From Escherichia phage dw-ec, in sequence record OL739525.1: 64,000 nt of DNA; one strand, given 5' to 3'. Within the stretch, counting starts at the first letter, position 1. Each line of letters starts with the position of its first letter. The notes below the pieces were generated by a model. That model saw nothing but the letters and a program-made list of their open reading frames with translations. It was not told the DNA's origin and did not search any database. Position numbers and translations under genes: made by a program. Below, piece by piece: positions 19,070 through 56,966 of this stretch.

Positions 19070-19105
19070 AGAAAAGGCACCCACTTGGGTGCCTTTGTTT
19101 TATTC
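19070..19105. terminator. bidirectional intrinsic terminator at convergence of plus and minus blocks
   Basis: hairpin ggcaccca-ct-tgggtgcc flanked by A-run upstream and T-run downstream. Confidence 0.7.
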
Positions 19106-19114
19106 TTCGTTAGA

Positions 19115-19372
19115 TTACGTTTCAGACGCGTTAAATTCGGTTTCAGTACAACTTGCTAGGTAACTTATGTTTTGCATCACTACAACTACAGGTGTTTGAA
19201 GTTTATCTTCTAGCCCCGCAGCCACTTGAGCCAAGGCATTATCAATATTTGATTTCCTAACGCCTGTTCCATGTCCTGTTGCCAAGTAAAGATTACCTTC
19301 GCCTTTTTGTGTGGCATTGGCAAAGTAGTAAACGTAATGTGCAAGGTAGTAATCACGGATTTCTTCAGTCAT
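19115..19372 (-). CDS. hypothetical protein
   Basis: ORF with RBS; last gene of the minus block. Confidence 0.45.
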   Translation of the reverse strand: MTEEIRDYYLAHYVYYFANATQKGEGNLYLATGHGTGVRKSNIDNALAQVAAGLEDKLQTPVVVVMQNISYLASCTETEFNASET

Positions 19373-19383
19373 TTTATTCTCCT

Positions 19384-19406
19384 AATAAGAAAGGGGCCGA
19401 AGCCCC
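19384..19406 (-). terminator. intrinsic terminator (minus strand)
   Basis: hairpin ggggcttcggcccc followed on the minus strand by TTTCTTATT. Confidence 0.55.
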
Positions 19407-19415
19407 TTGAGTGGT

Positions 19416-20231
19416 TTATTTGTTTAAGTGGTCTTCGACCATTTTAATGAAACCTTCATTGCTGAAGGCTGTTGCAGCTTTTTCTCGGTAAACAAAAACT
19501 CCACGATCTTCATAGAGAAGTGTTTCTTCGTAATTAACTCCAGGGTTAACTACAACCATTTTTGTACCCATACTAAGTGCAGGAAATAATTCCCAATTAA
19601 AATTGATAACTTGGTTTGAACATCCTACTACTACAACCAAATCTTGCATGGTCAAAGTATCGAACAAGTGAGCCATATCTGCATACAAAGGTGCAGCCTC
19701 ACCAAAAAATACAACATTAGGCTTCACCCAGTTATAATCATCTATGTTTATACTATTGTAACCGATATCTACCAGTGTTTTGTAATCTCCAGGATGCATA
19801 CGGTAAACCACTTCAGGAAGATATCCGTGCACGTGAATAACAGAATCTCTGTCTACACCTGCTCGCTCTAGTAGATCATCAACGTTTGTTGTCAAGTTTA
19901 CTACTTGGTTAGGATATTCTTTAAACCATTTTGCTATTTGAATATGTGCAGCATTAGGCTGTACATCTTTAAGTTCAACACGTCTTTTGTTATAAAATTC
20001 GTGTGTTTTGGCATACAAATCCATGCCGTTCTCGTCTACACCACCGACCACTGGAAGATCTGGAGATGTTCTAACACGATAACCTGCTTGGAAAGCTCCA
20101 ATATCGCAGACCTCTTCTAAATCATATTCTTCCCATAAGGCACGACCACTGTCGGTGTCTGTTCGGAATGTTCTAATACCACTATCTGCACTTAAACCTG
20201 CACCGCTTACAAAAATCACTCGTCTTGGCAT
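19416..20231 (-). CDS. Sir2 (sirtuin) family NAD-binding protein
   Basis: motifs VIFVSGAGLSADSGIRTFR, LTTNVDDLLERAG, HVHG, VVFFGE, VVVGCS match the sirtuin Rossmann core. Confidence 0.6.
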   Translation of the reverse strand: MPRRVIFVSGAGLSADSGIRTFRTDTDSGRALWEEYDLEEVCDIGAFQAGYRVRTSPDLPVVGGVDENGMDLYAKTHEFYNKRRVELKDVQPNAAHIQIAKWFKEYPNQVVNLTTNVDDLLERAGVDRDSVIHVHGYLPEVVYRMHPGDYKTLVDIGYNSINIDDYNWVKPNVVFFGEAAPLYADMAHLFDTLTMQDLVVVVGCSNQVINFNWELFPALSMGTKMVVVNPGVNYEETLLYEDRGVFVYREKAATAFSNEGFIKMVEDHLNK

Positions 20232-20701
20232 TCTTCCTCCTCAAATGGATCATAAGAATCGTACTCGTAAGTATCATCTTCTGAAAATTCTACTTCGAAA
20301 TAAATATCAAACTCTGCAAACAGACGTAGGATGTTAGACATGCTGTAATAATTATCGTAGGCAGATTCAGCTTCATAGTAAACATAAAGCAAATGGTTAG
20401 CCTTATCATCTTCCAAATATTTCCCGTCTGCATACGCATAGTCTGCATATGCTTTACCTGCATCTTCCACAAGAGAACGATCAAGCAGAGTAGGAAATGG
20501 TTTCTCTTTTTCTTTTAGTTTGCTCACCAACCAATGTGCAATATCATTCCATTCTGCATCCATACCACTAAAGCAACTTGCTTCTTCTCCAAAAGAAGCT
20601 TCTCCTAAATCGCCACTAATACGAACAACATTAGATGAATTATAGCCACACGTTTCACAATCAGAGTAACTATTATGCACATTGACATTTACTTGAAACA
20701 T
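20216..20701 (-). CDS. hypothetical highly acidic protein
   Basis: ORF; C-terminal half very rich in Asp/Glu/Tyr. Confidence 0.45.
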   Translation of the reverse strand: MFQVNVNVHNSYSDCETCGYNSSNVVRISGDLGEASFGEEASCFSGMDAEWNDIAHWLVSKLKEKEKPFPTLLDRSLVEDAGKAYADYAYADGKYLEDDKANHLLYVYYEAESAYDNYYSMSNILRLFAEFDIYFEVEFSEDDTYEYDSYDPFEEEECQDE

Positions 20702-20759
20702 ATTCCCTCCTATAAAAGAAAAGCCCCCTGAAACAGGAGGCTTTGTTCAGATATCGGCA

Positions 20760-21413
20760 CTATACCAGACTTTCAAGGTATTTGTCAAGGGCTTCTTGAT
20801 CACCTTGACAAACATAGCAACGGAAGTCTTGAGCCGAAGGTTGTTTATTTTCATCCCAGTCCCAATAAACATTACCCTTATAACGTGAACCAGGAAACTC
20901 AAAAGAGGCTGTATGTGTAATGTACCCTGGGCCACCAGTGAAATCACAGAATGAGAATTGGGGGTATGCCGCCTTTACTGCCTCAATAAACCAAGCTTTA
21001 CGATCTAAAGCTTCATTGATGCTATACGCATGTCTCTCCATTTCTTCCCACGTTTTCCAGACACTTCTCTCATCAGGAGAAAAGACAAGCCATTCTGGAA
21101 GGTATAGAGTGTCATAGTAATCATCATATTCGATCTCGGAGGCGCACGAAGCTGACTCCTCCAGTTTTGAGTAATCAAAAGCAGAATATACCCACCAACC
21201 ATCTTCCAGTAAGGCTTTGATAGGGACGAAGCCTTTATCAGCATATTGATCGAATTGTTTGACACGGTGGCTTGTGCAGTCTTCAAACTCACATTCTAAA
21301 CGATATGCACCTTTTCGACGAGCCTCAAGACCGTGTGTACTGAAAATAACAACACTTCCTTCACCATCATTACGATCTACTTGATAAGCAACCACTGGTT
21401 TTGAATTTGACAT
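20760..21413 (-). CDS. hypothetical protein
   Basis: ORF with RBS; 217 aa. Confidence 0.5.
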   Translation of the reverse strand: MSNSKPVVAYQVDRNDGEGSVVIFSTHGLEARRKGAYRLECEFEDCTSHRVKQFDQYADKGFVPIKALLEDGWWVYSAFDYSKLEESASCASEIEYDDYYDTLYLPEWLVFSPDERSVWKTWEEMERHAYSINEALDRKAWFIEAVKAAYPQFSFCDFTGGPGYITHTASFEFPGSRYKGNVYWDWDENKQPSAQDFRCYVCQGDQEALDKYLESLV

Positions 21414-22096: not shown

Positions 22097-22502
22097 TACC
22101 CCTCCATTCAAGACAAGCCATAACTTTACGCCAATCACTTTCTGTAAGAAAAATCTCGTTTGCTTTCTTCCACAAATCTAAATCGTGAAGGGTTGGAATA
22201 CGATATGTTAGTTCACAGAATCTATGCTCTTCTTCTGTAATATAACCAAAATGCAGAGCCACATCGTGAAACCAACACCAACCATGCATCTCTCGAACAA
22301 CATGGTCATGTTGAGACATTATTTTATGCCGTAAACCTAACCAACAAGGAACAGATACTTTAGTAGTCTTTAATCTGTGATCAACAGTATTAGAGTATTC
22401 AATAATAGCTGTCAGTTTCAATCGTGCTTTTTCTAAATCCTCATGGGTCACTTTGAAATAACTTTCTGAAAGATATCCACACATATTAATAACCTCCTTC
22501 AA
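22089..22502 (-). CDS. hypothetical protein
   Basis: ORF in operon, 137 aa. Confidence 0.45.
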   Translation of the reverse strand: MKEVINMCGYLSESYFKVTHEDLEKARLKLTAIIEYSNTVDHRLKTTKVSVPCWLGLRHKIMSQHDHVVREMHGWCWFHDVALHFGYITEEEHRFCELTYRIPTLHDLDLWKKANEIFLTESDWRKVMACLEWRGNE

Positions 22503-23427
22503 AAGGCTTAACTACATGTTGATTAGCTTTAAAACGTTCAACATAGTCGTTTTCGCCCATGTTTTCATATAGCTTAGTAATAACATAAAAGTTTTCCCAA
22601 GCATATTCCCTAAACCAACCACTAGTGATGGATGTGCAGACTTTAGATAAAGCCATTATAAAACTTTGCTTAGGGGTTGGACCTCCGATCTCTTCACCGA
22701 AAGGAATTTGTGAACGTTCCAAAGCCAAAACACACGCTTCTTCATAAACACCTAACAGGCGCACATGTTTTGGTTGAGCAAAAAACTTTTCTTTGCTGGT
22801 CATAACTTCACTTCCATCTTTCATATAAGATTTATATGCTGGAGCATCCATTACCGCGATTGCTTCATGGATAGAATCATGATCATAAACATACGGAACC
22901 TCATCACCTTTAAAGAAGTCTTTACTTTTTACGTTTAAGTTCGGATGAGAGTAAGTGTATGTTTCTTTCTCACGCAACTCATAAATACTCTTAAGATTTT
23001 CTGGGATCTTTGCACCCAGTGACCGCATGAAATGAATATCTTTCATAGTTTTAAAGAAGTGAGGACTATCCTTTTTAAAACGATGACTCATTTTAAGAAG
23101 GTAGAGCACATCTAAAGGAGCAACAACATGTCCAGCGTAAGTTCGACGAACATCATCAGAATCTTCACAATAACTAATCAAAGCTTCTGTGCTATCTCCT
23201 TGAGAAGCAATATCGTATTCCAAATGTGCACCAGCTATCATTTTGACATGGCCTTTGTTTCCTTTACGTTCTACAAGTTCAACAAACTCATCTTGAGAGA
23301 ACATTTTTGATAATTCTTCCCACTCTTGTTCTGTACACAGGTAATCTAAATCTACACAAGGGCGATACAAGTCTTTTCCCATGTCCATAGTATGAATTTG
23401 TAATGCACGGCTACCAATTAACACCAT
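22486..23427 (-). CDS. hypothetical protein (possible Pol-beta-type nucleotidyltransferase motif)
   Basis: N-terminal LIGSRAL...DLDYL resembles the GS...DxD nucleotidyltransferase signature, but spacing is atypical. Confidence 0.4.
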   Translation of the reverse strand: MVLIGSRALQIHTMDMGKDLYRPCVDLDYLCTEQEWEELSKMFSQDEFVELVERKGNKGHVKMIAGAHLEYDIASQGDSTEALISYCEDSDDVRRTYAGHVVAPLDVLYLLKMSHRFKKDSPHFFKTMKDIHFMRSLGAKIPENLKSIYELREKETYTYSHPNLNVKSKDFFKGDEVPYVYDHDSIHEAIAVMDAPAYKSYMKDGSEVMTSKEKFFAQPKHVRLLGVYEEACVLALERSQIPFGEEIGGPTPKQSFIMALSKVCTSITSGWFREYAWENFYVITKLYENMGENDYVERFKANQHVVKPFEGGY

Positions 23428-45548: not shown

Positions 45549-46274
45549 TTACTTGTTAATAATACCTGCAATATTAGGTTTGACAAAGGTCGATGGTTTC
45601 ATGATCTTACCTTTATCATCAAAGAACACATACACTTTCTGTTTTTCATTATAAACAGCATGAACACCAGTGTATGCCCCTTCTGGACGATTGGCATTTC
45701 GTTCTTCAATTGCAGCGCATTCTTGTGCAATGGCTGAATCGATATCCGAAGTTTTCCAAGTTTTCAGCAACTGTTGTTTAGTTGGATACTTGGAATCATT
45801 ACTTTTCAATACCTCTTTAATAACTTTCTTTTCTGGATATTTTGAACGGATTAGAGTGTCACGAGACATACGCATAATACCAGCAGCCATTAGTGCCATT
45901 TGAACTGGCTCTGTAAATGTTTGTTCCAAAGCATCAAAATCAGTATACACAGTTGGAGTAAAAACATCGCCTACAGCATAGTCCAAGAAATTCATCGTAT
46001 GTTCTTCACCAAAGAACATGTAAGTCAGATAACTGGATACTACAAAAATATCTGCTGCTGCATCCAAGAGTTCTACATGATCGTTTACTTTCGCGGCTGT
46101 TTCATACTCTTTAAGCTCTTCACGAACGAACCCGATTTGGGACATAAATAGCTCTTGAGTGAATTCAGGTTGTTCACCACCTCGTGCTTTGGCATTCCAA
46201 TCAATCACGTGCTTTGCTGCATTTTTGAAAAATTCAGTATCGAATTTAATATCTTTAAAAAAATTCTCGATCAT
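45549..46274 (-). CDS. MazG-like nucleotide pyrophosphohydrolase domain protein
   Basis: EELKEYETAAKVNDHVELLDAAADI fits the E-x2-E ... E-x2-D all-alpha NTP-PPase motif. Confidence 0.45.
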   Translation of the reverse strand: MIENFFKDIKFDTEFFKNAAKHVIDWNAKARGGEQPEFTQELFMSQIGFVREELKEYETAAKVNDHVELLDAAADIFVVSSYLTYMFFGEEHTMNFLDYAVGDVFTPTVYTDFDALEQTFTEPVQMALMAAGIMRMSRDTLIRSKYPEKKVIKEVLKSNDSKYPTKQQLLKTWKTSDIDSAIAQECAAIEERNANRPEGAYTGVHAVYNEKQKVYVFFDDKGKIMKPSTFVKPNIAGIINK

Positions 46275-46283
46275 TATAACTCC

Positions 46284-46544
46284 TTATTTAAAATAGCTTT
46301 CTAGAAAGTTGCTAATATTTACTACAGTCTCACCCATGTAAATTCCTGCGAAACCGAAAACAAGCATACGTGGAATATTGAAATACCATTTATCCGCCGG
46401 AAAAGATGCCAGAATTACAATAGCAATTGCTATCAACATCATAAGAATTGTTGCTAAAATTATCATAAAAATGCCTCCAGGTATTTTGCACAATGGTAAG
46501 CTAAGAAACAAGAAACTACCGCATACCCAACTCCAGACATACAT
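46284..46544 (-). CDS. hypothetical membrane protein
   Basis: two hydrophobic helices. Confidence 0.45.
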   Translation of the reverse strand: MYVWSWVCGSFLFLSLPLCKIPGGIFMIILATILMMLIAIAIVILASFPADKWYFNIPRMLVFGFAGIYMGETVVNISNFLESYFK

Positions 46545-46657
46545 GAATCAATCGCAATACATACGGTTCTTTTCTTTGAATTCTTAGGAAAGCTTTCCGA
46601 AGCATTCATACAATAAAAAGAAAGCACACTGAAAACGATTAAAATGGCTAAGAACAT
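46463..46657 (-). CDS. hypothetical small membrane protein
   Basis: hydrophobic N-terminus; overlaps neighbour. Confidence 0.3.
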   Translation of the reverse strand: MFLAILIVFSVLSFYCMNASESFPKNSKKRTVCIAIDSCMSGVGYAVVSCFLAYHCAKYLEAFL

Positions 46658-46666
46658 TTTTCCTCC

Positions 46667-47794
46667 TTATTCTGCTGGTTCCCAAGTGCCTGGGATCATT
46701 TCTCGAATACGAACACCAACAGGTTTTGTTGGAATACCTTCATCTGAAAATTCTTCATACTCTATTTCAACGAACTGATTAATCAAGGTAGAAGCATTCT
46801 CTGCTTTACGATAATTGATAGTCTCATGAGCATCTTTACGCATTAAGAATTCGACTACTTTACCATTTTCCATCTCACCTGTCAACACTCCATCACCATT
46901 TTTATCACTTTTTGAATTTGTTACTTTAACTTCAAGGGTGTGGCGAGGCTTACGTTTAATAACGTCATAAGAACGTTTATCAAATTCGTAAACTCCGTGA
47001 GCATTACGATATACTACACCTTCAGCTTTCTCAAGTAAAGCTTTTTCATAGAAAGCATCAAACTGTTCTTGGTTTTCAATATACTCTGTATGAACTACAC
47101 AAATAAGCTCGTCAAGACCATAATCTTCAACTACTGCCTTAAGAGCAGTAAGAACATCAACACGTTTTTCAAACGGTAGATCTGGAACTGGAATATCGTA
47201 TACGTAATAATTCAGCAAAGGTGTATTTGCATTATGCTTCTTCCAGGCACTGTTAATTTGTTGCAGACTAAGGACACCTAACCCAGCAAACACTTCACCA
47301 TCAAGAGGATGACCAACAACTTCACTAATAAAGTTTGGAATACCTTTCCAATGAGGTGGCAGGTTATACACTTCCCCAGCTTTTGATAAACACTCCCCTT
47401 TCATGTTAATCATAGAACGTAACCCGTTCAGTTTGTATTGTGCATAACCAGGGAACACAACCCTTTCAGGATAATCTTTATAATCCTGGCATTTCATTGG
47501 TGTAGAAGGAACATGGTTTTCAGCTTCTTCTTTTGTTTTATAATAGCCATTCTTTAACTGTTTTGTCCATTTGGCAAAAGCTTCAAGTTCAGCTTGTTCT
47601 TCTGGTGTTGTTTCATTGGAACGACCGATGTTTTTTGCTTCTGCTGTATAAGATTTTTCTGTGATTTTTCCACCTACCCTTCCATGAGCTACAGTAACAA
47701 CTGCACCATCTGTATACACTGTCCACTGTTTAAGTTTTCCTTTTGAATCTTTACCATACAGCGTTTGATTTGTTTGTTGCATTAGTCCTCCCAT
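46667..47794 (-). CDS. ATP-dependent polynucleotide ligase (covalent nucleotidyltransferase superfamily)
   Basis: motif I KLNGLR, motif III LDGEVF, motif IV-V AEGVVYR, KRK; unusual N-terminal domain. Confidence 0.55.
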   Translation of the reverse strand: MGGLMQQTNQTLYGKDSKGKLKQWTVYTDGAVVTVAHGRVGGKITEKSYTAEAKNIGRSNETTPEEQAELEAFAKWTKQLKNGYYKTKEEAENHVPSTPMKCQDYKDYPERVVFPGYAQYKLNGLRSMINMKGECLSKAGEVYNLPPHWKGIPNFISEVVGHPLDGEVFAGLGVLSLQQINSAWKKHNANTPLLNYYVYDIPVPDLPFEKRVDVLTALKAVVEDYGLDELICVVHTEYIENQEQFDAFYEKALLEKAEGVVYRNAHGVYEFDKRSYDVIKRKPRHTLEVKVTNSKSDKNGDGVLTGEMENGKVVEFLMRKDAHETINYRKAENASTLINQFVEIEYEEFSDEGIPTKPVGVRIREMIPGTWEPAE

Positions 47795-48003
47795 TTAAAA
47801 ACTGAAATTTTCAATCTGTTACACACTTCATCCAAATCTGCGTCGAGTAACGTTGTGGATGTTGCCAACATATAATCAATGCTTGTGAAACCTTGCCCTT
47901 TGGCATAGTCAAGCATATCTTCATACATATCTTCAAGATCACCGTCATCAAAAGTAGCTAGAAAATCCTCGTCCCCGCTACGAACATAAAATGCAGTACT
48001 CAT
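47782..48003 (-). CDS. hypothetical acidic protein
   Basis: ORF, 73 aa. Confidence 0.4.
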   Translation of the reverse strand: MSTAFYVRSGDEDFLATFDDGDLEDMYEDMLDYAKGQGFTSIDYMLATSTTLLDADLDEVCNRLKISVFKWED

Positions 48004-48191
48004 TCATCTTCATCCCAAGATTCAAAAACGCAGCAATCATCGGTTTCTATAATACCAACACGTCCGCAGGTATTGCAAGTGATTTTATCACCGTAGAATA
48101 AATAATTTTTATCACCCTCTGTGTTTACAGTTATGTCATTACTACCACAAGGGCAAGTCAGCCAACCAACAACAACGATATCTTTTTTCAT
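48000..48191 (-). CDS. hypothetical zinc-ribbon protein
   Basis: CPCG ... CNTCG cysteine pairs. Confidence 0.4.
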   Translation of the reverse strand: MKKDIVVVGWLTCPCGSNDITVNTEGDKNYLFYGDKITCNTCGRVGIIETDDCCVFESWDEDE

Positions 48192-48200
48192 AATCCCTCC

Positions 48201-48527
48201 TTAAGCGTTCAGTTCGTTGTTGAGTTCGTAAATCTCTTCTTGAAGAGCATCAATCTCTTCCTCCAAACGGGAGATCTCTTCTTTTAGATATACCGTTTCT
48301 GATTCTTTCTCTTCTAATTCATTTTCAAATTTTACTTTATTCGCCTCATTTTCATAATGCAGTTCAGCGTAATCATCACGCATTTGTTCAATAAGATGAA
48401 TCAGAGATAAGATATAGTTATCCCCAGTTTCATCTCGCCACTCTTCCCCGTGGCGCAAGATTGTGATTCGTCCCGTGTTTTCATCTAAAATTGTCTCATA
48501 TTTACGATCATCTGTATAAATCTGCAT
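48201..48527 (-). CDS. hypothetical coiled-coil protein
   Basis: ORF, 108 aa, heptad-rich C-terminus. Confidence 0.45.
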   Translation of the reverse strand: MQIYTDDRKYETILDENTGRITILRHGEEWRDETGDNYILSLIHLIEQMRDDYAELHYENEANKVKFENELEEKESETVYLKEEISRLEEEIDALQEEIYELNNELNA

Positions 48528-48536
48528 TATTACTCC

Positions 48537-48941
48537 TTATTGAAGTTTAAGTGAACCACGAAGACGTTTCTCTTGCTGATCACGAATATATTGTGGAACC
48601 TCGTGAATTGAATCATTACCGTGCCTATTTTCAACAACTAAAGAGATAACTTGATAACCAAACTCTTCAGCAAGAGTTAGATAAGGTTTAAGTTCTTTCT
48701 CTGTGGTTGAAGTGTTAGAAACAATAATCTTGTTAAGATTAGATGCCATAGCATCACGAACAATACTCTGACACCATGCGTGTGCTTTACCTACATTTTC
48801 TGGCTTCCAATCGTAAACACCACTTTCTGTATAATGATATTGATCTGCCTCACAGATAGGCCAATAACCTTCAGAAATAATTTCTGCTACCGTAGATTTA
48901 CCAGCACCTGAAACGCCACGTAAAATGATAAGTTGTTTCAT
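48537..48941 (-). CDS. P-loop polynucleotide kinase-like protein
   Basis: Walker A GVSGAGKST; N-terminus resembles the kinase domain of T4 polynucleotide kinase. Confidence 0.55.
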   Translation of the reverse strand: MKQLIILRGVSGAGKSTVAEIISEGYWPICEADQYHYTESGVYDWKPENVGKAHAWCQSIVRDAMASNLNKIIVSNTSTTEKELKPYLTLAEEFGYQVISLVVENRHGNDSIHEVPQYIRDQQEKRLRGSLKLQ

Positions 48942-49874
48942 TTATCCTCCAAAGAAGTTTTCGATTTTTTCACGTCGCTCTTGCTGATTTAAAGCAGCCC
49001 ATTGAGTCTTCGTAAAATTATTTCGAATCCATTCTAACAAAGCGTAATATTCTTCGTCAACAATTTGTTTGGCATTTTTTGGATTATCCCAAATCAGATC
49101 CCACTTTTTATCTCCACCACGCATAAGAAACTTCTTAGTAAGATAGTGTGGTGATTTAATTTTTAAAAGTAAGTTGAACGGATAGTTTGTTTCACGAACT
49201 ACAAACCCTTCGTGTTTACAATGTTTAGACATTTCAACAACATCTGAAAACTTAACCATTGGATGAACTTCAGGACGCTTAAATTTGGTGACAGAAGCAA
49301 TTCCATCAAGAGCACCTTCAGGTAACATAAAACTTGTCCCATCAGGATTTTGAATTCTGGCACCAATTAAGTATGCACCTGGTTCTTCTTCGACAATATG
49401 TGGATCAGAAGGATCACAGATTTCAAACAGGAAAGTTGCTTTTGCACTCTCTGCCCATTTGATGAAATGTTCTATGTCATCGCACTCTGAAACAATATGA
49501 TTCTTTGCAATACTTGCAAAATCTGATTCAAGGCTTCCTGTTGTCGATACAATAAGTTGACCTTTATATACACCTACAGAGGCCATAAAACCATTTACTT
49601 TACGAACCACATCTACAAGTTCATCCGCTGGTAGATCTGTGCCATTCTCAAAACGATTAAAAATCTTAGTGAAAGGCCAAATAACAACATTGTCATCAGC
49701 ATCAACAACGATTCCGCGACATTCTAGAAGACGAGAATCAATGCTCCATAAATTATCCCAGAAAACTTTGTTCTTATACTTAAGAACAGATAGACCAGAA
49801 TACTCTCCTTCTTTATATGTTTTCTTATGAACTAAACCTTTTTCAACCAAATCGTCGCAATTAAATTTAGTCAC
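48942..49874 (-). CDS. RNA ligase (Rnl1 family, T4 gp63-like)
   Basis: LLECRGIVV and FNRFEN match T4 Rnl1 ALECRGIMF and EKFFNLNEN; motif I KVNG, motif IV EGFVVRE, motif V KIKSPHY. Confidence 0.65.
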   Translation of the reverse strand: MTKFNCDDLVEKGLVHKKTYKEGEYSGLSVLKYKNKVFWDNLWSIDSRLLECRGIVVDADDNVVIWPFTKIFNRFENGTDLPADELVDVVRKVNGFMASVGVYKGQLIVSTTGSLESDFASIAKNHIVSECDDIEHFIKWAESAKATFLFEICDPSDPHIVEEEPGAYLIGARIQNPDGTSFMLPEGALDGIASVTKFKRPEVHPMVKFSDVVEMSKHCKHEGFVVRETNYPFNLLLKIKSPHYLTKKFLMRGGDKKWDLIWDNPKNAKQIVDEEYYALLEWIRNNFTKTQWAALNQQERREKIENFFGG

Positions 49875-49875
49875 A

Positions 49876-50427
49876 TTACTCTCCTTTGATTATTTTGTGA
49901 TGGTCTACAGTCACGATATCTCGTTTACTCATCATAGAAATTATCTCATCAAAATGCAAGATTTTTCCGTGTGCATCCCAACCCACATCTAACATTTTAC
50001 CATAAGCTTCATCAGGGAAAGATCCGTGGGAATGCCCGTGTAGCATGATTGATCCACGACCTTGTTTATTCCAGGAGGCAATAGGGTAATGACTTAAGAC
50101 GAAGAACAGCTTCTGGTATTTCACTTCGTCATAATACACCACTTCGCCATACTCTGCAAGCACTTCTCGGTGCTTGCTGTAATCATGATTCCCAACAAGA
50201 TAAGTGATATCCCCTTGCAGACGGGAAGCAATCTTACGGGTATCTTCTTCAGTCCCGAAACAGAAGTCGCCCAAATGCCACATCTTAACACCAGGGGTAG
50301 TAGCACATTTGTTCCATGCTTCGATCAAGGCTTCTGTCATGTGGTCCATATCTTCCCACGGACGATATTCAGGAGCAAACTCTCGAATGCGTTTATGCAT
50401 AAAATGCAAATCGCTTGTAATAAACAT
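49876..50427 (-). CDS. calcineurin-like metallophosphoesterase
   Basis: SDLHFMH, LGDFCFG, GNHD, HGHSH motifs. Confidence 0.65.
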   Translation of the reverse strand: MFITSDLHFMHKRIREFAPEYRPWEDMDHMTEALIEAWNKCATTPGVKMWHLGDFCFGTEEDTRKIASRLQGDITYLVGNHDYSKHREVLAEYGEVVYYDEVKYQKLFFVLSHYPIASWNKQGRGSIMLHGHSHGSFPDEAYGKMLDVGWDAHGKILHFDEIISMMSKRDIVTVDHHKIIKGE

Positions 50428-50783
50428 TAGTATAATCCCTCGCTAAATAATTCATGGTCGTGACCATTACGCTCATGGTCGATCTGGTCAGCATTTTCCG
50501 CGATGATGTAAGCATCCGCACGACTCCACCAATTGTAATACTGATCGATAAAGCCTTGATTATCTGGTGTGCACAAAGTTTTGTTGATTACACCTGCTTC
50601 TTTCAACACGTTTAACTGTGCATATAGTACAGGATTTGCATGTCGAACACAAGGAATAATTAACTCTTCGCCATTATTCAAAATATACTTATTTGCAGCA
50701 CAGACAATAACACGTTGCGCATAATGACCCTCACCCATCCAGGTAAGAGGTTGGTAACAAATGTTGTTTTCAATACCACTCAT
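50427..50783 (-). CDS. hypothetical protein
   Basis: ORF, 118 aa. Confidence 0.45.
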   Translation of the reverse strand: MSGIENNICYQPLTWMGEGHYAQRVIVCAANKYILNNGEELIIPCVRHANPVLYAQLNVLKEAGVINKTLCTPDNQGFIDQYYNWWSRADAYIIAENADQIDHERNGHDHELFSEGLY

Positions 50784-50942
50784 TGTTTCCTAATCCTCCT
50801 CTCTTAAATTATCCTCGAAAAAACTAGTATCTGGAAGTAAAAGATCATTGCTTGTGTCGGGCGAATCCTCTTCTTCTCTGTAGATAAAGTAACCTTCGTC
50901 CTCTTCTTGTTCCGACCAAACCGAATGATGCATGTTCTCTCC

Positions 50943-51299
50943 TTAGTAGTGCACACGAATCATTTTAATACCATAACGCTGCATGGATTCTTTTGCAAGC
51001 ATGAATTTATCCCCAGCGGCGGGATTAGAAGTATGCACGAAAATGGTAGGTGAACCAAAGCAAGGTTTACCAAACGCCAGAAGTTCTTCCAGGTGCAGGA
51101 AAACATCATACCCATCTTGGTCTGACTCCATACCTAAATCGTTGTCAAAATGCCACTCGTCTACAAAACGATAACCCTTCTGCACCTCATTCATGTAACG
51201 AGAGGCAAGAAGTTCCTGTGAGGTTTTAAACCAGATTGCATCTGGACAACCATAATCTTTTGGATCACGTAAATCATCAAGCCAAATAATAGTACCCAT
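50943..51299 (-). CDS. hypothetical protein
   Basis: ORF, 118 aa. Confidence 0.45.
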   Translation of the reverse strand: MGTIIWLDDLRDPKDYGCPDAIWFKTSQELLASRYMNEVQKGYRFVDEWHFDNDLGMESDQDGYDVFLHLEELLAFGKPCFGSPTIFVHTSNPAAGDKFMLAKESMQRYGIKMIRVHY

Positions 51300-55042: not shown

Positions 55043-55117
55043 GGCCCTGTAGCTCAATGGGAGAGCTGTCGGCTCATAACCGATAGGTAGCTGGATCGAA
55101 ACCAGCCAGGGCCACCA
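55043..55117 (+). tRNA. tRNA-Met (anticodon CAU)
   Basis: acceptor ggccctg/cagggcc, anticodon loop ctCATaa, T-arm and encoded CCA (hand fold). Confidence 0.7.
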
Positions 55118-55119
55118 AC

Positions 55120-55194
55120 GTCTTTATGGTGTAATGGATAGCACAGGAGTCTTCTAAACTCTTAGTCAAGGTTCGATTCCTTGTAAAGACACCA
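55120..55194 (+). tRNA. tRNA-Arg (anticodon UCU)
   Basis: acceptor gtcttta/taaagac, anticodon loop ctTCTaa, T-loop ggttcgattcc, CCA (hand fold). Confidence 0.65.
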
Positions 55195-55390
55195 GAACAT
55201 TTTAACATGAATTAGCTCAAGTGATTTGAACCCACTACTGATCATGGTGGCAGAGAATGAGGCAAGTATGTCAGACATTATAAACAAAGGCCACGGTTAT
55301 ATTAGAAGACATAAATGCTCGAAGAGCACCGTTCGTTGAGAACGGGGGTTGGTGGAGTCACCATTCATGGTAAAATGTTTTAAAAAACTA

Positions 55391-55420
55391 TTGACAACTA
55401 ACATTATTTTATGTTAGATT
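55391..55420 (+). promoter_or_regulatory. sigma70-like promoter inside the tRNA cluster
   Basis: TTGACA at 55391-55396, TTAGAT/TAGATT 17-18 bp downstream. Confidence 0.45.
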
Positions 55421-55428
55421 ATAAGTAT

Positions 55429-55519
55429 GGAAGGGCAAATCGATGTGGCGACGAAAACGGTCTTGAAAACCGCCGAGCTTGAAAGAGCCTTGGGAGTTCG
55501 ACTCTCCCTCCTTCCGCCA
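55429..55519 (+). tRNA. tRNA-Ser (anticodon UGA), type II
   Basis: acceptor ggaaggg/tccttcc, anticodon loop ctTGAaa, long variable arm, CCA (hand fold). Confidence 0.6.
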
Positions 55520-55524
55520 GATTA

Positions 55525-55610
55525 GGTAGATTGGTGAAATGGTAGCCACAACAGTTTGCTAAACTGTAGTCGGAAACGGCGTGTAGGTTCGAGTCCTACA
55601 TCTACCGCCA
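55525..55610 (+). tRNA. tRNA-Ser (anticodon GCU), type II
   Basis: acceptor ggtagat/atctacc, anticodon stem acagt/actgt with loop ttGCTaa, long variable arm, CCA. Confidence 0.65.
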
Positions 55611-55740
55611 AGTTCTTTTTAATATAGCTTACTTTAATAGAGTAAACTTTCGGCAGATGGCCTCCACCATCTTACCGATAACTCATAGTTAGTGGTGTGA
55701 ACACTGGCTATTTTAAAAAGAATTTAAATATTAGTATTTA

Positions 55741-55828
55741 GGTGAGTTAATTCCGTAGGGGTAGCGGGGCAGACTGTAAATCTGTTATCATTGCGATTCG
55801 GGTGGTTCGACTCCATCACTCACCACCA
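55741..55828 (+). tRNA. tRNA-Tyr (anticodon GUA), type II
   Basis: acceptor ggtgagt/actcacc, anticodon loop ctGTAaa, long variable arm, CCA. Confidence 0.65.
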
Positions 55829-55834
55829 AATTAA

Positions 55835-55920
55835 GATGAGTTGGCTGAATGGTTTAAGCGGCGGACTGTTAATCCGTGTTCGAAAGAACGATATAGGTTC
55901 AAATCCTATACTCATCGCCA
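55835..55920 (+). tRNA. type II tRNA, anticodon apparently GUU (Asn-reading), identity uncertain
   Basis: acceptor gatgagt/actcatc, 3-bp D stem, anticodon stem gcgga/tccgt with loop ctGTTaa, variable-arm hairpin gttc-gaaa-gaac, CCA (hand fold). Confidence 0.5.
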
Positions 55921-55927
55921 GAATTAT

Positions 55928-56004
55928 GGACTTGTAGAGTTAAGGTAAACCCCCAGTCGCCAAGAGGCTTCTGGAATTGCAGGTATCGAATCCTGCCGAG
56001 TCCC
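55928..56004 (+). ncRNA. tRNA-like sequence, fold unresolved (possible degenerate tRNA)
   Basis: acceptor-like pairing ggacttg/cgagtcc and T-arm-like gcagg..cctgc, but no clean anticodon arm. Confidence 0.3.
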
Positions 56005-56010
56005 AGTTTT

Positions 56011-56085
56011 GCTCCTATAGTATAATGGCTATTACAACGGTTTTGTAATCCGTGGATCTCTGTTCGATTCAGAGTGGGAGCACCA
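56011..56085 (+). tRNA. tRNA-Thr (anticodon UGU), tentative
   Basis: acceptor gctccta/tgggagc, T-arm ctctg-ttcgatt-cagag, anticodon loop ttTGTaa with a U-U at the stem end, CCA. Confidence 0.5.
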
Positions 56086-56358
56086 ACATAACATTAAGAG
56101 CACTGTGATTGATCGTCGTATCCTGTGCACAAGGTCTGCTCGAAAGACAGTGTTCTTAGTATTGTGTTGATCACACAAAGAGTTACCTGAAACTTGACCG
56201 GAGTAGGGTTGGATGGGGCAAAAGAAGAAGCGGCTCTCCCATCGACAGCAACGAAGAATAATATTTGACTTTGGTTTTGTATTATTTTAAGTTAGCTTAC
56301 CGAACGTAGGGCTAGTCACCCAATGGGATACTCGTCACTGTCCCACTCAATAAAACTA

Positions 56359-56388
56359 TTGACAACCAATAGTAAAATGTAGTATAGT
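56359..56388 (+). promoter_or_regulatory. sigma70-like promoter inside the tRNA cluster
   Basis: TTGACA at 56359-56364, TATAGT at 56383-56388. Confidence 0.55.
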
Positions 56389-56399
56389 AAAGATGTAGG

Positions 56400-56473
56400 G
56401 CGTTCTTGGTGTAGCGGTAGCATTCCGTCCTTCCAAGTCGGCGGCACGAGTTCGATCCTCGTAGAACGCTCCA
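56400..56473 (+). tRNA. tRNA-Gly (anticodon UCC)
   Basis: acceptor gcgttct/agaacgc, T-arm acgag-ttcgatc-ctcgt, anticodon loop ctTCCaa, CCA. Confidence 0.6.
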
Positions 56474-56571
56474 AATTATTTAATAAAGGGTTGCCAGAAA
56501 ACTTTCTCTTTTACTCATGGTTTTCTCCTTCTCTCACACCTCTTCTGGTTGCCCTTCATTAAATGATTTAT

Positions 56572-56647
56572 TGGTTTGTAGTGTAGTCCGGTAGCACACG
56601 ACACTTTGACTGTCGTAGGTTTGGTTCAAATCCAGACAGACCAGCCA
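56572..56647 (+). tRNA. tRNA-Gln (anticodon UUG)
   Basis: U1-A72 acceptor tggtttg/cagacca, D stem gtgt/gcac, anticodon stem cgaca/tgtcg with loop ctTTGac, CCA. Confidence 0.65.
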
Positions 56648-56652
56648 TATAA

Positions 56653-56729
56653 CGGAATTTAGCTCAGTTTGGTAGAGCATACGCTTTGGGAGCGTAGGGT
56701 CGCAGGTTCGAATCCTGCAATTCCGACCA
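56653..56729 (+). tRNA. tRNA-Pro (anticodon UGG)
   Basis: acceptor cggaatt/aattccg, anticodon stem tacgc/gcgta with loop ttTGGga, T-loop ggttcgaatcc, CCA. Confidence 0.7.
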
Positions 56730-56735
56730 ATCAAA

Positions 56736-56809
56736 TGTTTCGTAGTTCAATGGTAGAACCCACGACTGATAATCGTGAGACACAAGTTCGATTCTTGTCG
56801 AAACAACCA
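56736..56809 (+). tRNA. tRNA-Ile (anticodon GAU)
   Basis: acceptor tgtttcg/cgaaaca, anticodon stem cacga/tcgtg with loop ctGATaa, T-arm acaag-ttcgatt-cttgt, CCA. Confidence 0.65.
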
Positions 56810-56811
56810 GT

Positions 56812-56881
56812 TTCCCGTTAGACTTACAGGATAAGAGTTCCACAACTTATTGTGATGCTGGTTCGAATCCAGCACGGGATA
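56812..56881 (+). ncRNA. tRNA-like sequence with canonical T-arm but aberrant anticodon region
   Basis: T-arm gctgg-ttcgaat-ccagc and partial acceptor pairing; anticodon arm would need a 10-nt loop; no CCA. Confidence 0.3.
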
Positions 56882-56887
56882 CATAAT

Positions 56888-56966
56888 AGCGGGATAGAGG
56901 AGTCTGGTCGTCCTCGCCAGTTTCATATGCTGGAGATCATCGGTTCAAATCCGATTCCCGCCTCCA
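56888..56966 (+). tRNA. tRNA with anticodon CAU (Met or lysidine-Ile), A1-C72 mismatch
   Basis: acceptor agcggga/tcccgcc, D stem gagg/cctc, anticodon loop ttCATat, T-arm atcgg-ttcaaat-ccgat, CCA. Confidence 0.6.

Follow-up and report, generated by a model that had tools for sequence, protein, structure and literature searches.

A zinc-free CobB/SIRT5-like sirtuin encoded by a phAPEC8-like Escherichia coli phage, and its overlap with an upstream gene

Sirtuins encoded by bacteriophages have been discussed by Skliros et al. (2016; PMC5107563), who described zinc-free examples for phiSt2 and KVP40, and by Iyer et al. (2022; PMC9503650), who recognised a "distinct viral clade" that includes the rV5-like, Proteus Mydo-like and SP15/T5-like proteins and that of Serratia phage BF. 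In the rV5-like, Mydovirus-like and T5-like phages, the sirtuin gene is embedded among RNA-end-repair genes, and this neighbourhood is the basis on which a Tpt1-like activity was predicted for phage sirtuins (Iyer et al., 2022; PMC9503650). Our literature searches turned up no phage sirtuin whose function had been examined by enzymatic or genetic means.

For the class III sirtuins, the pocket for anionic acyl groups consists of a Y-x-x-R pair together with a small residue (A76 in CobB, A86 in SIRT5), and the role of the pair in binding such groups has been described for CobB Y92/R95 and its class III paralogues (PMC6636992, PMC10652111). The two-step NAD+ chemistry of Tpt1 is parallel to that of sirtuins (PMC11417386); the likeness of the phage sirtuins to Tpt1/KptA is an analogy only, in that the sirtuin and Tpt1 reactions are both NAD+-dependent two-step ADP-ribosyl transfers in which nicotinamide is released.

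The window analysed here is a stretch of 64,000 nucleotides from Escherichia phage dw-ec (OL739525.1). Over the 3 kb that were compared, the sequence matches Escherichia phage ETEC-TG (Phapecoctavirus) with 100% identity, and the phage that carries the sirtuin is a phAPEC8-like E. coli phage. The gene is a 271-aa open reading frame with an ATG start, and its features are as follows.

19416..20231, minus strand: coding sequence of the sirtuin, zinc-free and class III (CobB/SIRT5-like), from the open reading frame list, Pfam, PHROG, the AF2 model and the fold match
20163..20204, minus strand: codons of G10-R23 (GAGLSADSGIRTFR), the NAD-binding glycine loop and the Phe22-Arg23 cofactor loop, from invariance in the clade and alignment to CobB F60/R61
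20016..20093, minus strand: codons of residues 47-72, a variable insertion, from alignments; the block has a pLDDT of 91-95 in the model
19983..19994, minus strand: codons of Tyr80-Asn-Lys-Arg83, the class III Y-x-x-R pair, invariant in the clade and mapped to CobB Y92/R95
19878..19889, minus strand: codons of Thr115-Asn116-Val117-Asp118, the TQN(I/V)D motif with Gln changed to Thr, from the alignment of 141 representatives
19827..19829, minus strand: codon of the catalytic His135 (CobB His147), present in 141/141 representatives and in every phage lineage examined
19710..19826, minus strand: codons of residues 136-174, the small-domain segment that bears the Cys4 in canonical sirtuins and has 0 Cys here, from the Cys count and the model

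The identification of this gene product as a phage-encoded Sir2-family protein, made in an earlier note from the sequence alone, is borne out by matches to Pfam SIR2 (PF02146; E = 1.3e-22, 81 bits, with the cutoff at 24 bits) and to PHROG 2162 "Sir2" (E = 8e-105, residues 2-271, the full length), and homologues occur in 983 phage records; as sequence matches, these lie far above chance. NCBIfam CobB-type models also match the protein, yet under their equivalog cutoffs. All of the motifs that the note had quoted are present, with GAGLSADSGIRTFR at residues 10-23, TTNVDDLLERAG at residues 114-125, HG at 135-136, FFGE at 175-178 and VVVGCS at 200-205. The closest sequences, in sequence and profile searches, are the deacylases E. 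coli CobB, Sir2-Af1/Af2, SIRT5 and Sir2Tm. The AF2 model has a pLDDT of 91.7, and its closest folds in Foldseek are CobB, Sir2-Af1 and SIRT5, the best PDB match being E. coli CobB 1s5p (E = 5e-18, TM 0.85 normalised to CobB).

The tblastn identities of the sirtuin are 46-47% to Vequintavirus (rV5-like), 56-58% to Mydovirus-like, 52-62% to T5-like, and 36-38% to the Serratia BF (37%) and Vibrio nt-1 proteins; the clade has diverged to about 36% identity. The protein is a full-length member of the PHROG 2162 phage Sir2/CobB family (T5, KVP40/phiSt2, rV5, Serratia BF), and this match, together with its close homology to the exemplars named by Iyer et al., places it in their clade. The ETEC-TG copy is already annotated as an NAD-dependent deacetylase. 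Thus, the family is widespread, annotated and discussed in the literature, and the observation of a phage sirtuin is correct but ordinary; our analysis adds nothing to the public annotation of the gene itself. The new details are the detachment of the sirtuin from the RNA-repair genes in Stephanstirmvirinae, the overlapping gene pair conserved across that subfamily, and the link between a Gln-to-Thr change and the loss of the zinc cysteines. The earlier note had overlooked the prior annotation and literature, the RNA-repair clusters of the relatives, and the translational coupling to the upstream gene.

The full catalytic set is present in the sirtuin (G10-A11-G12-x-S14, F22-R23, N116, D118, H135, F176-G177-E178, G203-x-S205 and N229, the Asn that contacts the adenine ribose), including the His of the HG motif, so that the missing catalytic residues which the earlier note had named as a refutation are not seen. 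This set is invariant in 44 clade members, as is S17 of the glycine loop, and is conserved in 141 representatives, where an alignment-based motif census of the homologues found His135 in 141/141, N116 in 141/141 and D118 in 136/141. The GAGxS, F-R, N-x-D, H-G, FGE, GxS and N elements, as well as the fold, are shared with CobB (1S5P, 6RXJ), SIRT5 and Sir2-Af1. Cys42, Tyr80 and Arg83, which map to CobB A76, Y92 and R95, are invariant in the clade, and the Serratia phage BF sirtuin lacks Arg83. The sirtuin retains all three determinants of class III anionic-acyl specificity, namely the two residues that bind the anion and, where CobB has A76 in its pocket, a small side chain. Its class III placement follows from these residues and from its closest sequence and fold relatives. 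Of the subfamilies among which the earlier note had wished to place the protein, CobB-type class III was thus the one supported, and SirTM and defence Sir2 were not.

Conversely, the sirtuin departs from CobB, to which it is about 27% identical, in several respects. All four zinc cysteines are missing: C42 and C204 are the only Cys of the protein, and the stretch from His135 to Phe175, where CobB and the relatives that keep the Gln have four, has none; the Cys4 zinc site is therefore absent, as the earlier note had observed. The length of the small-domain segment is nevertheless kept, and three beta-strands are still predicted there with high confidence in the AF2 model. Such a zinc-free small domain is common to this protein and the phiSt2/KVP40 sirtuins, and the family shows that the sirtuin fold can do without structural zinc. 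In addition, Gln129 of the CobB TQN motif, a residue expected of class III enzymes, is replaced by Thr115, and Pro221 of the VYP substrate loop is replaced by Asn210. Among the 141 representatives, 72 have Gln with at least three Cys and 34 have Thr with fewer than three (odds ratio 20.9, uncorrected for phylogeny), suggesting that zinc-cysteine loss tracks the Gln-to-Thr change.

These results indicate that the protein is, in all likelihood, a catalytically competent zinc-free member of a phage-specific class III (CobB/SIRT5-like) branch. The gene is real, and we consider it highly probable that it encodes an active class III-type sirtuin, although its enzymatic activity and its substrate are what we infer from these comparisons.

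The sirtuin gene, unlike that of CobB, is phage-borne and translationally coupled to an upstream gene for an acidic protein, ORF161. The features around it are as follows.

20720..20744, minus strand: terminator-like hairpin upstream of ORF161, with an 11-bp stem, 6 GC pairs and a T-run; an equivalent is annotated in the relative Schickermooser
20216..20701, minus strand: ORF161, encoding an acidic (pI 4.05) protein of 161 aa, PHROG 9509, from the open reading frame list and PHROG
20236..20242, minus strand: Shine-Dalgarno sequence GAGGAGG for the sirtuin, inside the 3' end of ORF161, read from the sequence
19391..19408, minus strand: terminator-like hairpin, 8 nt beyond the stop codon of the sirtuin, called here and also annotated in Schickermooser
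19115..19372, minus strand: ORF85, a small conserved gene, PHROG 15991, the last of the minus-strand block, from the open reading frame list and PHROG
19073..19096, no strand assigned: bidirectional terminator where plus- and minus-strand transcription converge, called on both strands; the cumulative GC skew changes direction at this point

The 3' end of ORF161 overlaps the start of the sirtuin gene by 16 nt, and the GAGGAGG precedes the sirtuin ATG by 4 nt. In Justusliebigvirus, the two genes overlap in the same way, at about 37% identity. ORF161 is restricted to Stephanstirmvirinae and has invariant residues H9, C15-x-x-C18, C43 and C158; its model has no PDB fold match, and its BFVD matches are uncharacterised phage proteins only. 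ORF85 follows the sirtuin by 43-44 nt in 5 IMG/VR loci and is present in Justusliebigvirus. ORF161 and ORF85, as well as the neighbouring ORF217, have no Pfam domain. The pairing with ORF161 and ORF85, both Stephanstirmvirinae-specific, distinguishes the sirtuin of this phage from its rV5-like, Mydovirus-like and T5-like relatives.

The earlier note had placed the sirtuin between two terminators at the 3' end of a long minus-strand operon. Both hairpins exist (20744-20720 and 19408-19391); they bracket a two-gene unit of ORF161 and the sirtuin, not the sirtuin alone, and ORF85 follows before the block ends at the terminator at 19073-19096. The best sigma-70-like match for the two-gene unit is at 20788-20759, immediately before the terminator hairpin, and we claim no promoter there; promoter-like sites are not enriched, with 15 found against 16.1 expected in shuffled sequence.

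In the relatives, the gene context is different. An RNA-end-processing gene lies within about 3 kb of the sirtuin in 41 of the 59 IMG/VR loci: in 13 loci, Rnl1, kinase, cREC and phosphoesterase genes are found within this distance, and in 28, a HAD_SAK RNA-repair phosphatase gene lies 0-460 bp away. The sirtuin neighbours comprise Rnl1, PNK, phosphoesterase and cREC in Vequintavirus and Mydovirus-like phages, and HAD_SAK_2 (E = 1e-20) in T5-like phages; in the Mydovirus-like phages, the sirtuin also directly abuts an ATP-dependent DNA ligase. In Serratia BF, the context includes a short protein annotated as "RNA ligase" and a Nudix protein, together with Nampt and a cytidyltransferase, and Nampt lies 3-6.6 kb upstream of the sirtuin in 10 loci. 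These locus counts are not independent observations, because they come from few lineages. In addition, the co-occurrence of the sirtuin with Rnl1 is partial: many of the 682 Rnl1 records are from Pseudomonas and Streptomyces phages, groups scarcely present among the 983 sirtuin records, and the Salmonella-phage records number 15 for Rnl1 and 289 for the sirtuin.

The phage studied here has a full RNA-repair module, recognised by BLASTP to the sirtuin neighbours of Vequintavirus and Mydovirus-like phages and by Pfam, as follows.

45549..51299, minus strand: RNA-repair module
45549-46274, minus strand: MazG-like gene
46667-47794, minus strand: ATP DNA ligase gene
48537-48941, minus strand: kinase gene (Pfam AAA_33, E = 4e-10)
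48942-49874, minus strand: Rnl1-type RNA ligase gene (Pfam RNA_lig_T4_1, E = 4e-15)
49876-50427, minus strand: calcineurin-like phosphoesterase gene (Metallophos_2 match weak, below cutoff)
50943-51299, minus strand: gene for a cREC domain protein (Pfam cREC_REC, E = 1e-13)

The window also contains 10 tRNA genes. The sirtuin gene, however, is detached from this module by 25-30 kb, and no RNA-end-processing gene (Rnl1, PNK, cREC, MazG, HAD_SAK or 2H/Nudix/PIN) lies within 10 kb of it in the window or in the 5 equivalent IMG/VR loci, so that the adjacency to RNA-end-processing genes that marks the clade is lacking in this phage.

The earlier note had viewed the protein through the defence Sir2 NADases such as ThsA and DSR. 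With these enzymes (ThsA, DSR1/2, Sir2-HerA and short pAgo-Sir2), it has in common a distant Rossmann-type Sir2 domain that uses NAD+; it differs from them in being a single-domain protein of 271 aa from a virulent phage, with no sensor or partner domains. PADLOC returned only a 37-residue match (E = 0.007) to an unrelated candidate model, Pfam matched PF02146 and not SIR2_2, defence Sir2 structures are absent among the 50 matches listed by Foldseek, and Pfam and PHROG found no SLOG, HerA, pAgo or like sensor or partner domain in the neighbours. The defence framing is thus not supported, the nearest relatives being CobB, Sir2-Af1 and SIRT5, and we rejected a defence Sir2 or a decoy on the missing PADLOC and SIR2_2 matches and the invariant catalytic residues. 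SirTM is a microbial sirtuin that likewise shares a small operon with a partner, whereas the phage protein keeps the class III signatures, no Macro or GcvH-like neighbour was detected, and the ORF161 model matched no Macro-like or GcvH-like fold. On the missing partner, SirTM was rejected, and with it the SirTM-type ADP-ribosyltransferase among the functions that the note had offered.

An acylated protein lysine is, in our tentative judgement, the most likely substrate. The sirtuin would bind NAD+ and expel nicotinamide, an ADP-ribosyl adduct would form with an oxygen nucleophile of the substrate, and His135 would then activate a ribose hydroxyl for the second step. Host or phage proteins would supply the substrate in the form of acylated lysine side chains, we expect acyl groups that are short or negatively charged (succinyl, malonyl, acetyl or 2-hydroxyisobutyryl) to be preferred, and the sirtuin would act as a phage-brought CobB analogue, expressed from the two-gene unit with its acidic, Cys-bearing 161-aa partner. 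This reading is favoured by the nearest sequences and folds, all deacylases, by the invariant catalytic residues and the three anionic-acyl determinants, and by the predicted strands of the small domain. In addition, the positions expected to line the acyl-lysine tunnel, as aligned to CobB alone, stay hydrophobic (F22, V117, V173, F176 and V208). The protein itself has an acidic pI of 4.83 (clade median 5.0), and the alignment to CobB shows none of the additional basic residues that an RNA binder might carry. The departures at Thr115 and Asn210, the Arg83 missing in Serratia phage BF, and a zinc-site loss that may have reshaped the substrate cleft count against it, as does the gene neighbourhood, which is the sole function-specific evidence and points to RNA-end processing. 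The conserved His and Y-x-x-R do not discriminate between a deacylase and a Tpt1-like enzyme, because the two reactions are chemically parallel. As an RNA-repair sirtuin (Iyer et al., 2022), the protein would carry out a Tpt1/KptA-like removal in which a 2'-phosphate remaining at an RNA break or junction attacks C1'' of NAD+, a possibility that we find doubtful; the RNA might, for example, be a tRNA that a host anticodon nuclease has cleaved and that the cREC, phosphoesterase, kinase and Rnl1 enzymes of the phage have healed. Three RNA-end-processing gene sets are linked to the clade in separate phage lineages, a context that would suit a Tpt1-like step, and the 41 loci, the complete module (45.5-51.3 kb) with the tRNA genes, the published prediction (PMC9503650) and the chemical parallel (PMC11417386) argue in the same direction. 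Against this stand the distance of the module in this phage and subfamily, the partial Rnl1 co-occurrence, the few lineages, and an acidic protein with a putatively hydrophobic tunnel and no new basic cluster. The fold and sequence are unrelated to those of Tpt1/KptA, the sequence and fold searches having returned sirtuins only. T4-type healing is not known to leave a 2'-phosphate, which also counts against an RNA-repair role, and to our knowledge RNA 2'-phosphotransferase activity has never been shown for any sirtuin. For the zinc-free clade as a whole, it is conceivable, if rather unlikely, that it acts on RNA as a sirtuin-fold Tpt1 analogue, removing 2'-phosphates or a related end modification during tRNA repair, and that in Stephanstirmvirinae it was moved from the repair operon to the ORF161 partner; the evidence here neither favours nor excludes an RNA substrate for this clade.

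It is improbable that only the first step is used, by a mono-ADP-ribosyltransferase that modifies a host protein or nucleic acid (SirTM, SIRT4/6-type) or by a plain NADase that lowers host NAD+. In favour of this, the NAD pocket is preserved, deacylation might be weakened by the Gln-to-Thr change next to the nicotinamide ribose and by the missing Pro221, and the Nampt genes near the sirtuin in the 10 loci and in Serratia BF fit a heavy NAD+ consumer; however, the His of the second, deacylation-type step is invariant (141/141), the neighbours yielded no Macro, NADAR or GcvH-like partner, and there is no similarity to the NADase-type defence Sir2. Nor does this phage have an annotated NAD+ salvage pathway to offset an NADase: the ETEC-TG record annotates none, one unannotated "nucleotidyltransferase" beyond the window being left aside. 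A deacylase that acts on acylated aminoacyl-tRNA, for example reversing tRNA-acetylating GNAT toxins, or on the active-site lysine of the neighbouring ligases is a speculation that we regard as very unlikely. Such an enzyme would bring together the amide-cleaving architecture of sirtuins and the surrounding RNA and ligase genes, and the deacylase-like active site, the tRNA, RNA-repair and ligase contexts, and the abutting DNA ligase of the Mydovirus-like phages are merely compatible with it, but the Y-x-x-R pair suggests an anionic distal group rather than a plain acetyl, and we know of no sirtuin that acts on the alpha-amine acyl group of aminoacyl-tRNA. Least probable, and highly unlikely, is the inactive decoy or sponge of the earlier note, which would bind NAD-derived immune signals or block host Sir2 defence. 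Nothing specific favours it, though one might take the zinc-site loss as a sign of decay; the invariance of His135, Asn116, Asp118 and Tyr80-x-x-Arg83 in a clade with 983 phage records and a divergence down to about 36% identity argues against a decoy, as do the confidently predicted fold and the lack of resemblance to defence Sir2 proteins.

If the sirtuin is an acyl-lysine deacylase, large virulent coliphages would bring with them a CobB-like enzyme that resets host or phage protein acylation, a modest extension of what is known. If it acts in RNA repair, no sirtuin before it would have been shown to work on nucleic acid, and the enzyme would add a new arm to the counter-defence of phages against immunity that cleaves tRNA. 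The family is a large one: among its 983 phage records are those of the T5, rV5 and phAPEC8 groups, which have a use in phage therapy. The sub-lineage to which this sirtuin belongs is further set apart from CobB by the 26-residue insertion at residues 47-72, which in the alignments is absent from the Mydovirus-like, Tequintavirus and Vequintavirus homologues.

The sirtuin gene lies among minus-strand genes of the Phapecoctavirus dw-ec, where its neighbours are named here by their length in amino acids.

Features around the sirtuin gene (positions in the window).
20760–21413, minus strand: ORF217, upstream of the sirtuin; PHROG 8514, no Pfam domain
20744–20720, minus strand: terminator-like hairpin 5' of ORF161
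20216–20701, minus strand: ORF161; PHROG 9509
19416–20231, minus strand: sirtuin, 271 aa, ATG start
4 nt 5' of the sirtuin ATG, minus strand: Shine-Dalgarno GAGGAGG, read from the sequence
19408–19391, minus strand: terminator-like hairpin 3' of the sirtuin
19115–19372, minus strand: ORF85, small gene after the sirtuin; PHROG 15991
19073–19096, both strands: bidirectional terminator, meeting point of the plus- and minus-strand blocks

All five motifs on which the earlier note had based a Sir2-family assignment were found in the ORF. The protein scored 81 bits with Pfam SIR2, for which the cutoff is 24 (E 1.3e-22), and PHROG 2162, "Sir2 (NAD-dependent deacetylase)", covered residues 2–271 (E 8e-105). 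These matches confirm the assignment at a level far above chance. In the 3 kb surrounding the gene, identity is 100% with Escherichia phage ETEC-TG and 98–99% with many other Phapecoctavirus genomes, and relatives in this genus already carry the gene under the label of NAD-dependent deacetylase or Sir2-like protein. Outside this region the coordinates are offset by ~347–360 bp from the ETEC-TG record, with which the window is not strictly colinear.

The nearest solved relatives in sequence and profile searches were E. coli CobB, Sir2-Af1/Af2, SIRT5, and Sir2Tm. An AlphaFold2 model built from 44 homologues (mean pLDDT 91.7, pTM 0.88) best matched CobB (E 5e-18, TM 0.85 normalised to CobB), Sir2-Af1, and SIRT5, and no defence-type Sir2 was seen among the 50 structural matches listed. 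Pfam SIR2_2 did not match the protein, and the sole PADLOC match spanned 37 residues (E 0.007) and was to an unrelated candidate model. These results indicate that the sirtuin is of the class III type and not a ThsA/DSR-type NADase. Thus, the earlier interpretation holds at the family level, whereas its framing around defence Sir2 proteins was rejected.

The residues G10-A11-G12-x-S14, F22-R23, Y80, R83, N116, D118, H135, F176-x-E178, G203-x-S205, and N229 are invariant in 44 members of the phage clade. Across 141 cluster representatives, His135, the catalytic histidine of the HG motif, and Asn116 are both kept in 141/141, and Asp118 in 136/141. Residues were mapped onto an E. coli CobB sequence that was checked against PDB alignment fragments and the residue numbers in PDB titles and PMC5107563. 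On this mapping, C42 corresponds to A76, Y80 to Y92, R83 to R95, T115 to Q129, V117 to I131, H135 to H147, V173 to V187, F176 to F190, and V208-I209-N210 to V219-Y220-P221; the phage clade deviates from CobB at Gln129, which is Thr, and at Pro221, which is Asn. Desuccinylation by CobB requires Tyr92 and Arg95, whereas deacetylation can spare Arg95 (PMC6636992), and in class III paralogues the Tyr/Arg pair determines whether negatively charged acyl groups are preferred (PMC10652111). By this mapping, the class III pocket for anionic acyl groups is complete in the phage clade, and the lysine tunnel is still hydrophobic. The dw-ec protein is very probably an active, NAD+-consuming class III-type sirtuin.

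C42 and C204 are the sole cysteines of the sirtuin. None lies between His135 and Phe175, where ordinary sirtuins bear their Cys4 zinc site, and the absence of a zinc ribbon noticed earlier is thus borne out. This segment has the usual length (41 residues, 43 in CobB), and in the model the three beta-strands of the small domain are predicted to form despite the lack of cysteines. The zinc site is also missing from the sirtuins of phages phiSt2 and KVP40, and T5, SPC35, and GAP32, among others, are listed as carriers of the family (Skliros et al. 2016, PMC5107563); its loss is therefore already published and not new. Of the 141 representatives, 72 combine Gln at position 115 with three or more Cys, and 34 combine Thr there with fewer than three (odds ratio 20.9, uncorrected for phylogeny). 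Only two jumbo-phage members, L068 and L069, both of which keep the Gln, have 4–6 Cys among the phage sirtuins.

Most viral sirtuins have been proposed, from gene neighbourhoods, to form a distinct RNA-repair clade with KptA/Tpt1-like 2'-phosphate removal (Iyer et al. 2022, PMC9503650). We confirmed the cited neighbourhoods in four phages. Vequintavirus DrSchubert has polynucleotide kinase, phosphoesterase, RNA ligase, a 116-aa protein, and the sirtuin, with a DNA ligase farther downstream; Mydovirus-like Iguana has phosphoesterase, RNA ligase, a kinase-type ATPase, sirtuin, DNA ligase, and MazG. In T5-like HildyBeyeler the second gene downstream of the sirtuin encodes a phosphatase of the HAD_SAK_2 type ("Swiss army knife RNA repair"; E 1e-20), and in Serratia BF (L006) the sirtuin is flanked by a short protein annotated as "RNA ligase" and a Nudix hydrolase, with Nampt and cytidyltransferase-type genes adjoining.

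We then took a census of 59 IMG/VR sirtuin loci with 10-kb flanks, which represent few independent lineages. HAD_SAK lay 0–460 bp from the sirtuin in 28 loci, all T5-like. The two ORFs overlap in four of these (L033, L038, L044, and L051), which could reflect tight coupling or fusion, and are 124–460 bp apart in the others. The set of Rnl1, kinase, phosphoesterase, cREC, DNA ligase, and MazG lay within ~3 kb of the sirtuin in 13 loci. Nampt lay 3–6.6 kb upstream in 10 loci of the census, and a Nampt homologue stands 0.5–6.6 kb upstream of the sirtuin in many Mydovirus-like and larger phages (loci such as L017, L026–L029, L060, L062, L064, L065, and L067); together with Serratia BF, these loci indicate that the NAD+-consuming sirtuin is often near NAD+ salvage genes, none of which is annotated in the dw-ec-type phage. 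In five Phapecoctavirus-type loci the flanks contained ORF217, ORF161, and ORF85 and lacked any RNA-repair gene.

The window nevertheless holds homologues of the entire repair module, in the same minus-strand block, 25–30 kb from the sirtuin.

RNA-repair module and tRNA genes (positions in the window).
45549–46274, minus strand: MazG-like protein (pyrophosphatase)
46667–47794, minus strand: ATP-dependent DNA ligase
48537–48941, minus strand: P-loop kinase
48942–49874, minus strand: Rnl1-type RNA ligase
49876–50427, minus strand: calcineurin-like phosphoesterase
50943–51299, minus strand: cREC domain protein (Pfam cREC_REC, E 1e-13)
55043–56966, plus strand: 10 tRNA genes (ARAGORN: Met, Arg, Ser, Asn, Thr, Gly, Gln, Pro, Ile, Met)

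This RNA ligase shares 99.7% identity with its ETEC-TG counterpart. In rV5-like and Mydovirus-like phages the homologous clusters flank the sirtuin, whereas in dw-ec they are detached from it, and three small ORFs fill the slot between kinase and DNA ligase that the sirtuin occupies in Mydovirus-like phages. The tRNA calls differ in that the ETEC-TG record has tRNA-Tyr and lacks the second tRNA-Met, and ARAGORN gives the reverse. Rnl1 was found in 682 phage records, to which Pseudomonas and Streptomyces phages contribute many although they are barely represented among the sirtuin records; for Salmonella phages, 15 records carry Rnl1 versus 289 with the sirtuin. Co-occurrence of the two genes across phages is only partial.

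Acyl-lysine deacylation would be the first-ranked activity of the dw-ec sirtuin, at slightly below an even chance. Sequence and fold favour it because the class III pocket is intact, the hydrophobic tunnel residues are present, and the protein is acidic (pI 4.83; clade median 5.0; CobB 5.4), with no new basic cluster. Tpt1-like removal of RNA 2'-phosphates is possible, with a clearly lower probability: the neighbourhoods in relatives and the census point to RNA-end processing, but the dw-ec repair module is distant and the Rnl1 association incomplete. The sirtuin and Tpt1 reactions follow parallel chemistry, in which an oxygen nucleophile attacks C1'' of NAD+ and the adduct is next attacked by the 2''-OH of the ribose (PMC11417386); the conserved His and anion-binding pair thus cannot discriminate between these two activities.

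An ADP-ribosyltransferase or NADase is unlikely, and deacylation of acylated aminoacyl-tRNA or of ligase active-site lysines, our own idea for reconciling the evidence, is more improbable still. The decoy proposed in the earlier note is contradicted by the invariant catalytic residues and was rejected, retaining only the slightest probability. In the literature searched, no phage sirtuin was found to have been tested enzymatically or genetically. The gene, its family, the absent zinc ligands, and two functional hypotheses are already known from public annotation and literature. What is new is small: the detachment of the sirtuin from the RNA-repair module in Stephanstirmvirinae, its overlapping partner ORF161 conserved across this subfamily, and the Gln-to-Thr change linked to zinc loss. 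The sirtuin is a very common phage enzyme, and its substrate is easily testable.

Homologues of the protein were found by tblastn in 983 phage records.

Identity to the dw-ec sirtuin (tblastn).
Phapecoctavirus: 95–100%
Klebsiella phage KP13-26: 76%
T5-like Demerecviridae: 52–62%
Mydovirus-like Klebsiella phages: 56–58%
Vequintavirus (rV5-like): 46–47%
Vibrio nt-1/KVP40-like: 36–38%
Serratia jumbo phage BF: 37%

When 1.84 billion cluster representatives were searched exhaustively, just 26 matches had E < 1e-30, and weaker matches formed a continuum of sirtuin-length proteins (~240 aa). Several "Campylobacter phage" records (host C. jejuni; MG065639, MG065650, MG065645, MG065677, and others) share 86–98% identity with genes of E. 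coli phages of Phapecoctavirus, Justusliebigvirus, or Vequintavirus, which suggests mislabelled hosts or contaminating coliphages.

The earlier note had placed the sirtuin between two terminators at the 3' end of its operon. Both hairpins are present, but they bracket ORF161 and the sirtuin together, and ORF85 still follows before the bidirectional terminator. The 3' end of ORF161 reaches 16 nt into the sirtuin ORF and holds its ribosome-binding site. ORF161 is very acidic (pI 4.05; 38 Asp+Glu, 16 Tyr), and its invariant residues, H9, C15-x-x-C18, C43, and C158, the last within a conserved EEEECQD tail, may form a metal site. Its homologues occur in ~130 phage records, essentially Stephanstirmvirinae only; Justusliebigvirus keeps the order ORF217-like, ORF161-like (overlapping, ~37% identity), sirtuin, and ORF85-like, and the GAP32 homologue does not adjoin a sirtuin. 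No convincing PDB relative was found for the ORF161 model (pLDDT 78); the only proteins it resembled, from Erwinia phage pEa_SNUABM_47 and Klebsiella phage RaK2, are uncharacterised.

More distant IMG/VR loci without ORF161 (L013, L046, and L059) also have ORF217 upstream of the sirtuin, so its association with the sirtuin is wider than that of ORF161. In RefSeq, the entry for phage ESCO13 names the small ORF after the sirtuin (~90 aa; L007:1101-1373) "Sir2-like protein"; this seems an annotation slip, because the ORF is of the ORF85 type (PHROG 15991, unknown function) without sirtuin features. The best sigma-70-like promoter match of the region (20759–20788, minus strand; TTGACA, 18-nt spacer, TATAGT, extended TG) stands directly upstream of the strong hairpin at 20720–20744 that precedes ORF161, an odd promoter-then-terminator order, and may be a chance match, since promoter-like sites are not enriched relative to shuffled sequence. 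Farther upstream, a 313-aa protein (22486–23427, minus strand) strongly matches DUF7275 (E 2e-75) and DUF7277 (E 1e-13), both of unknown function.
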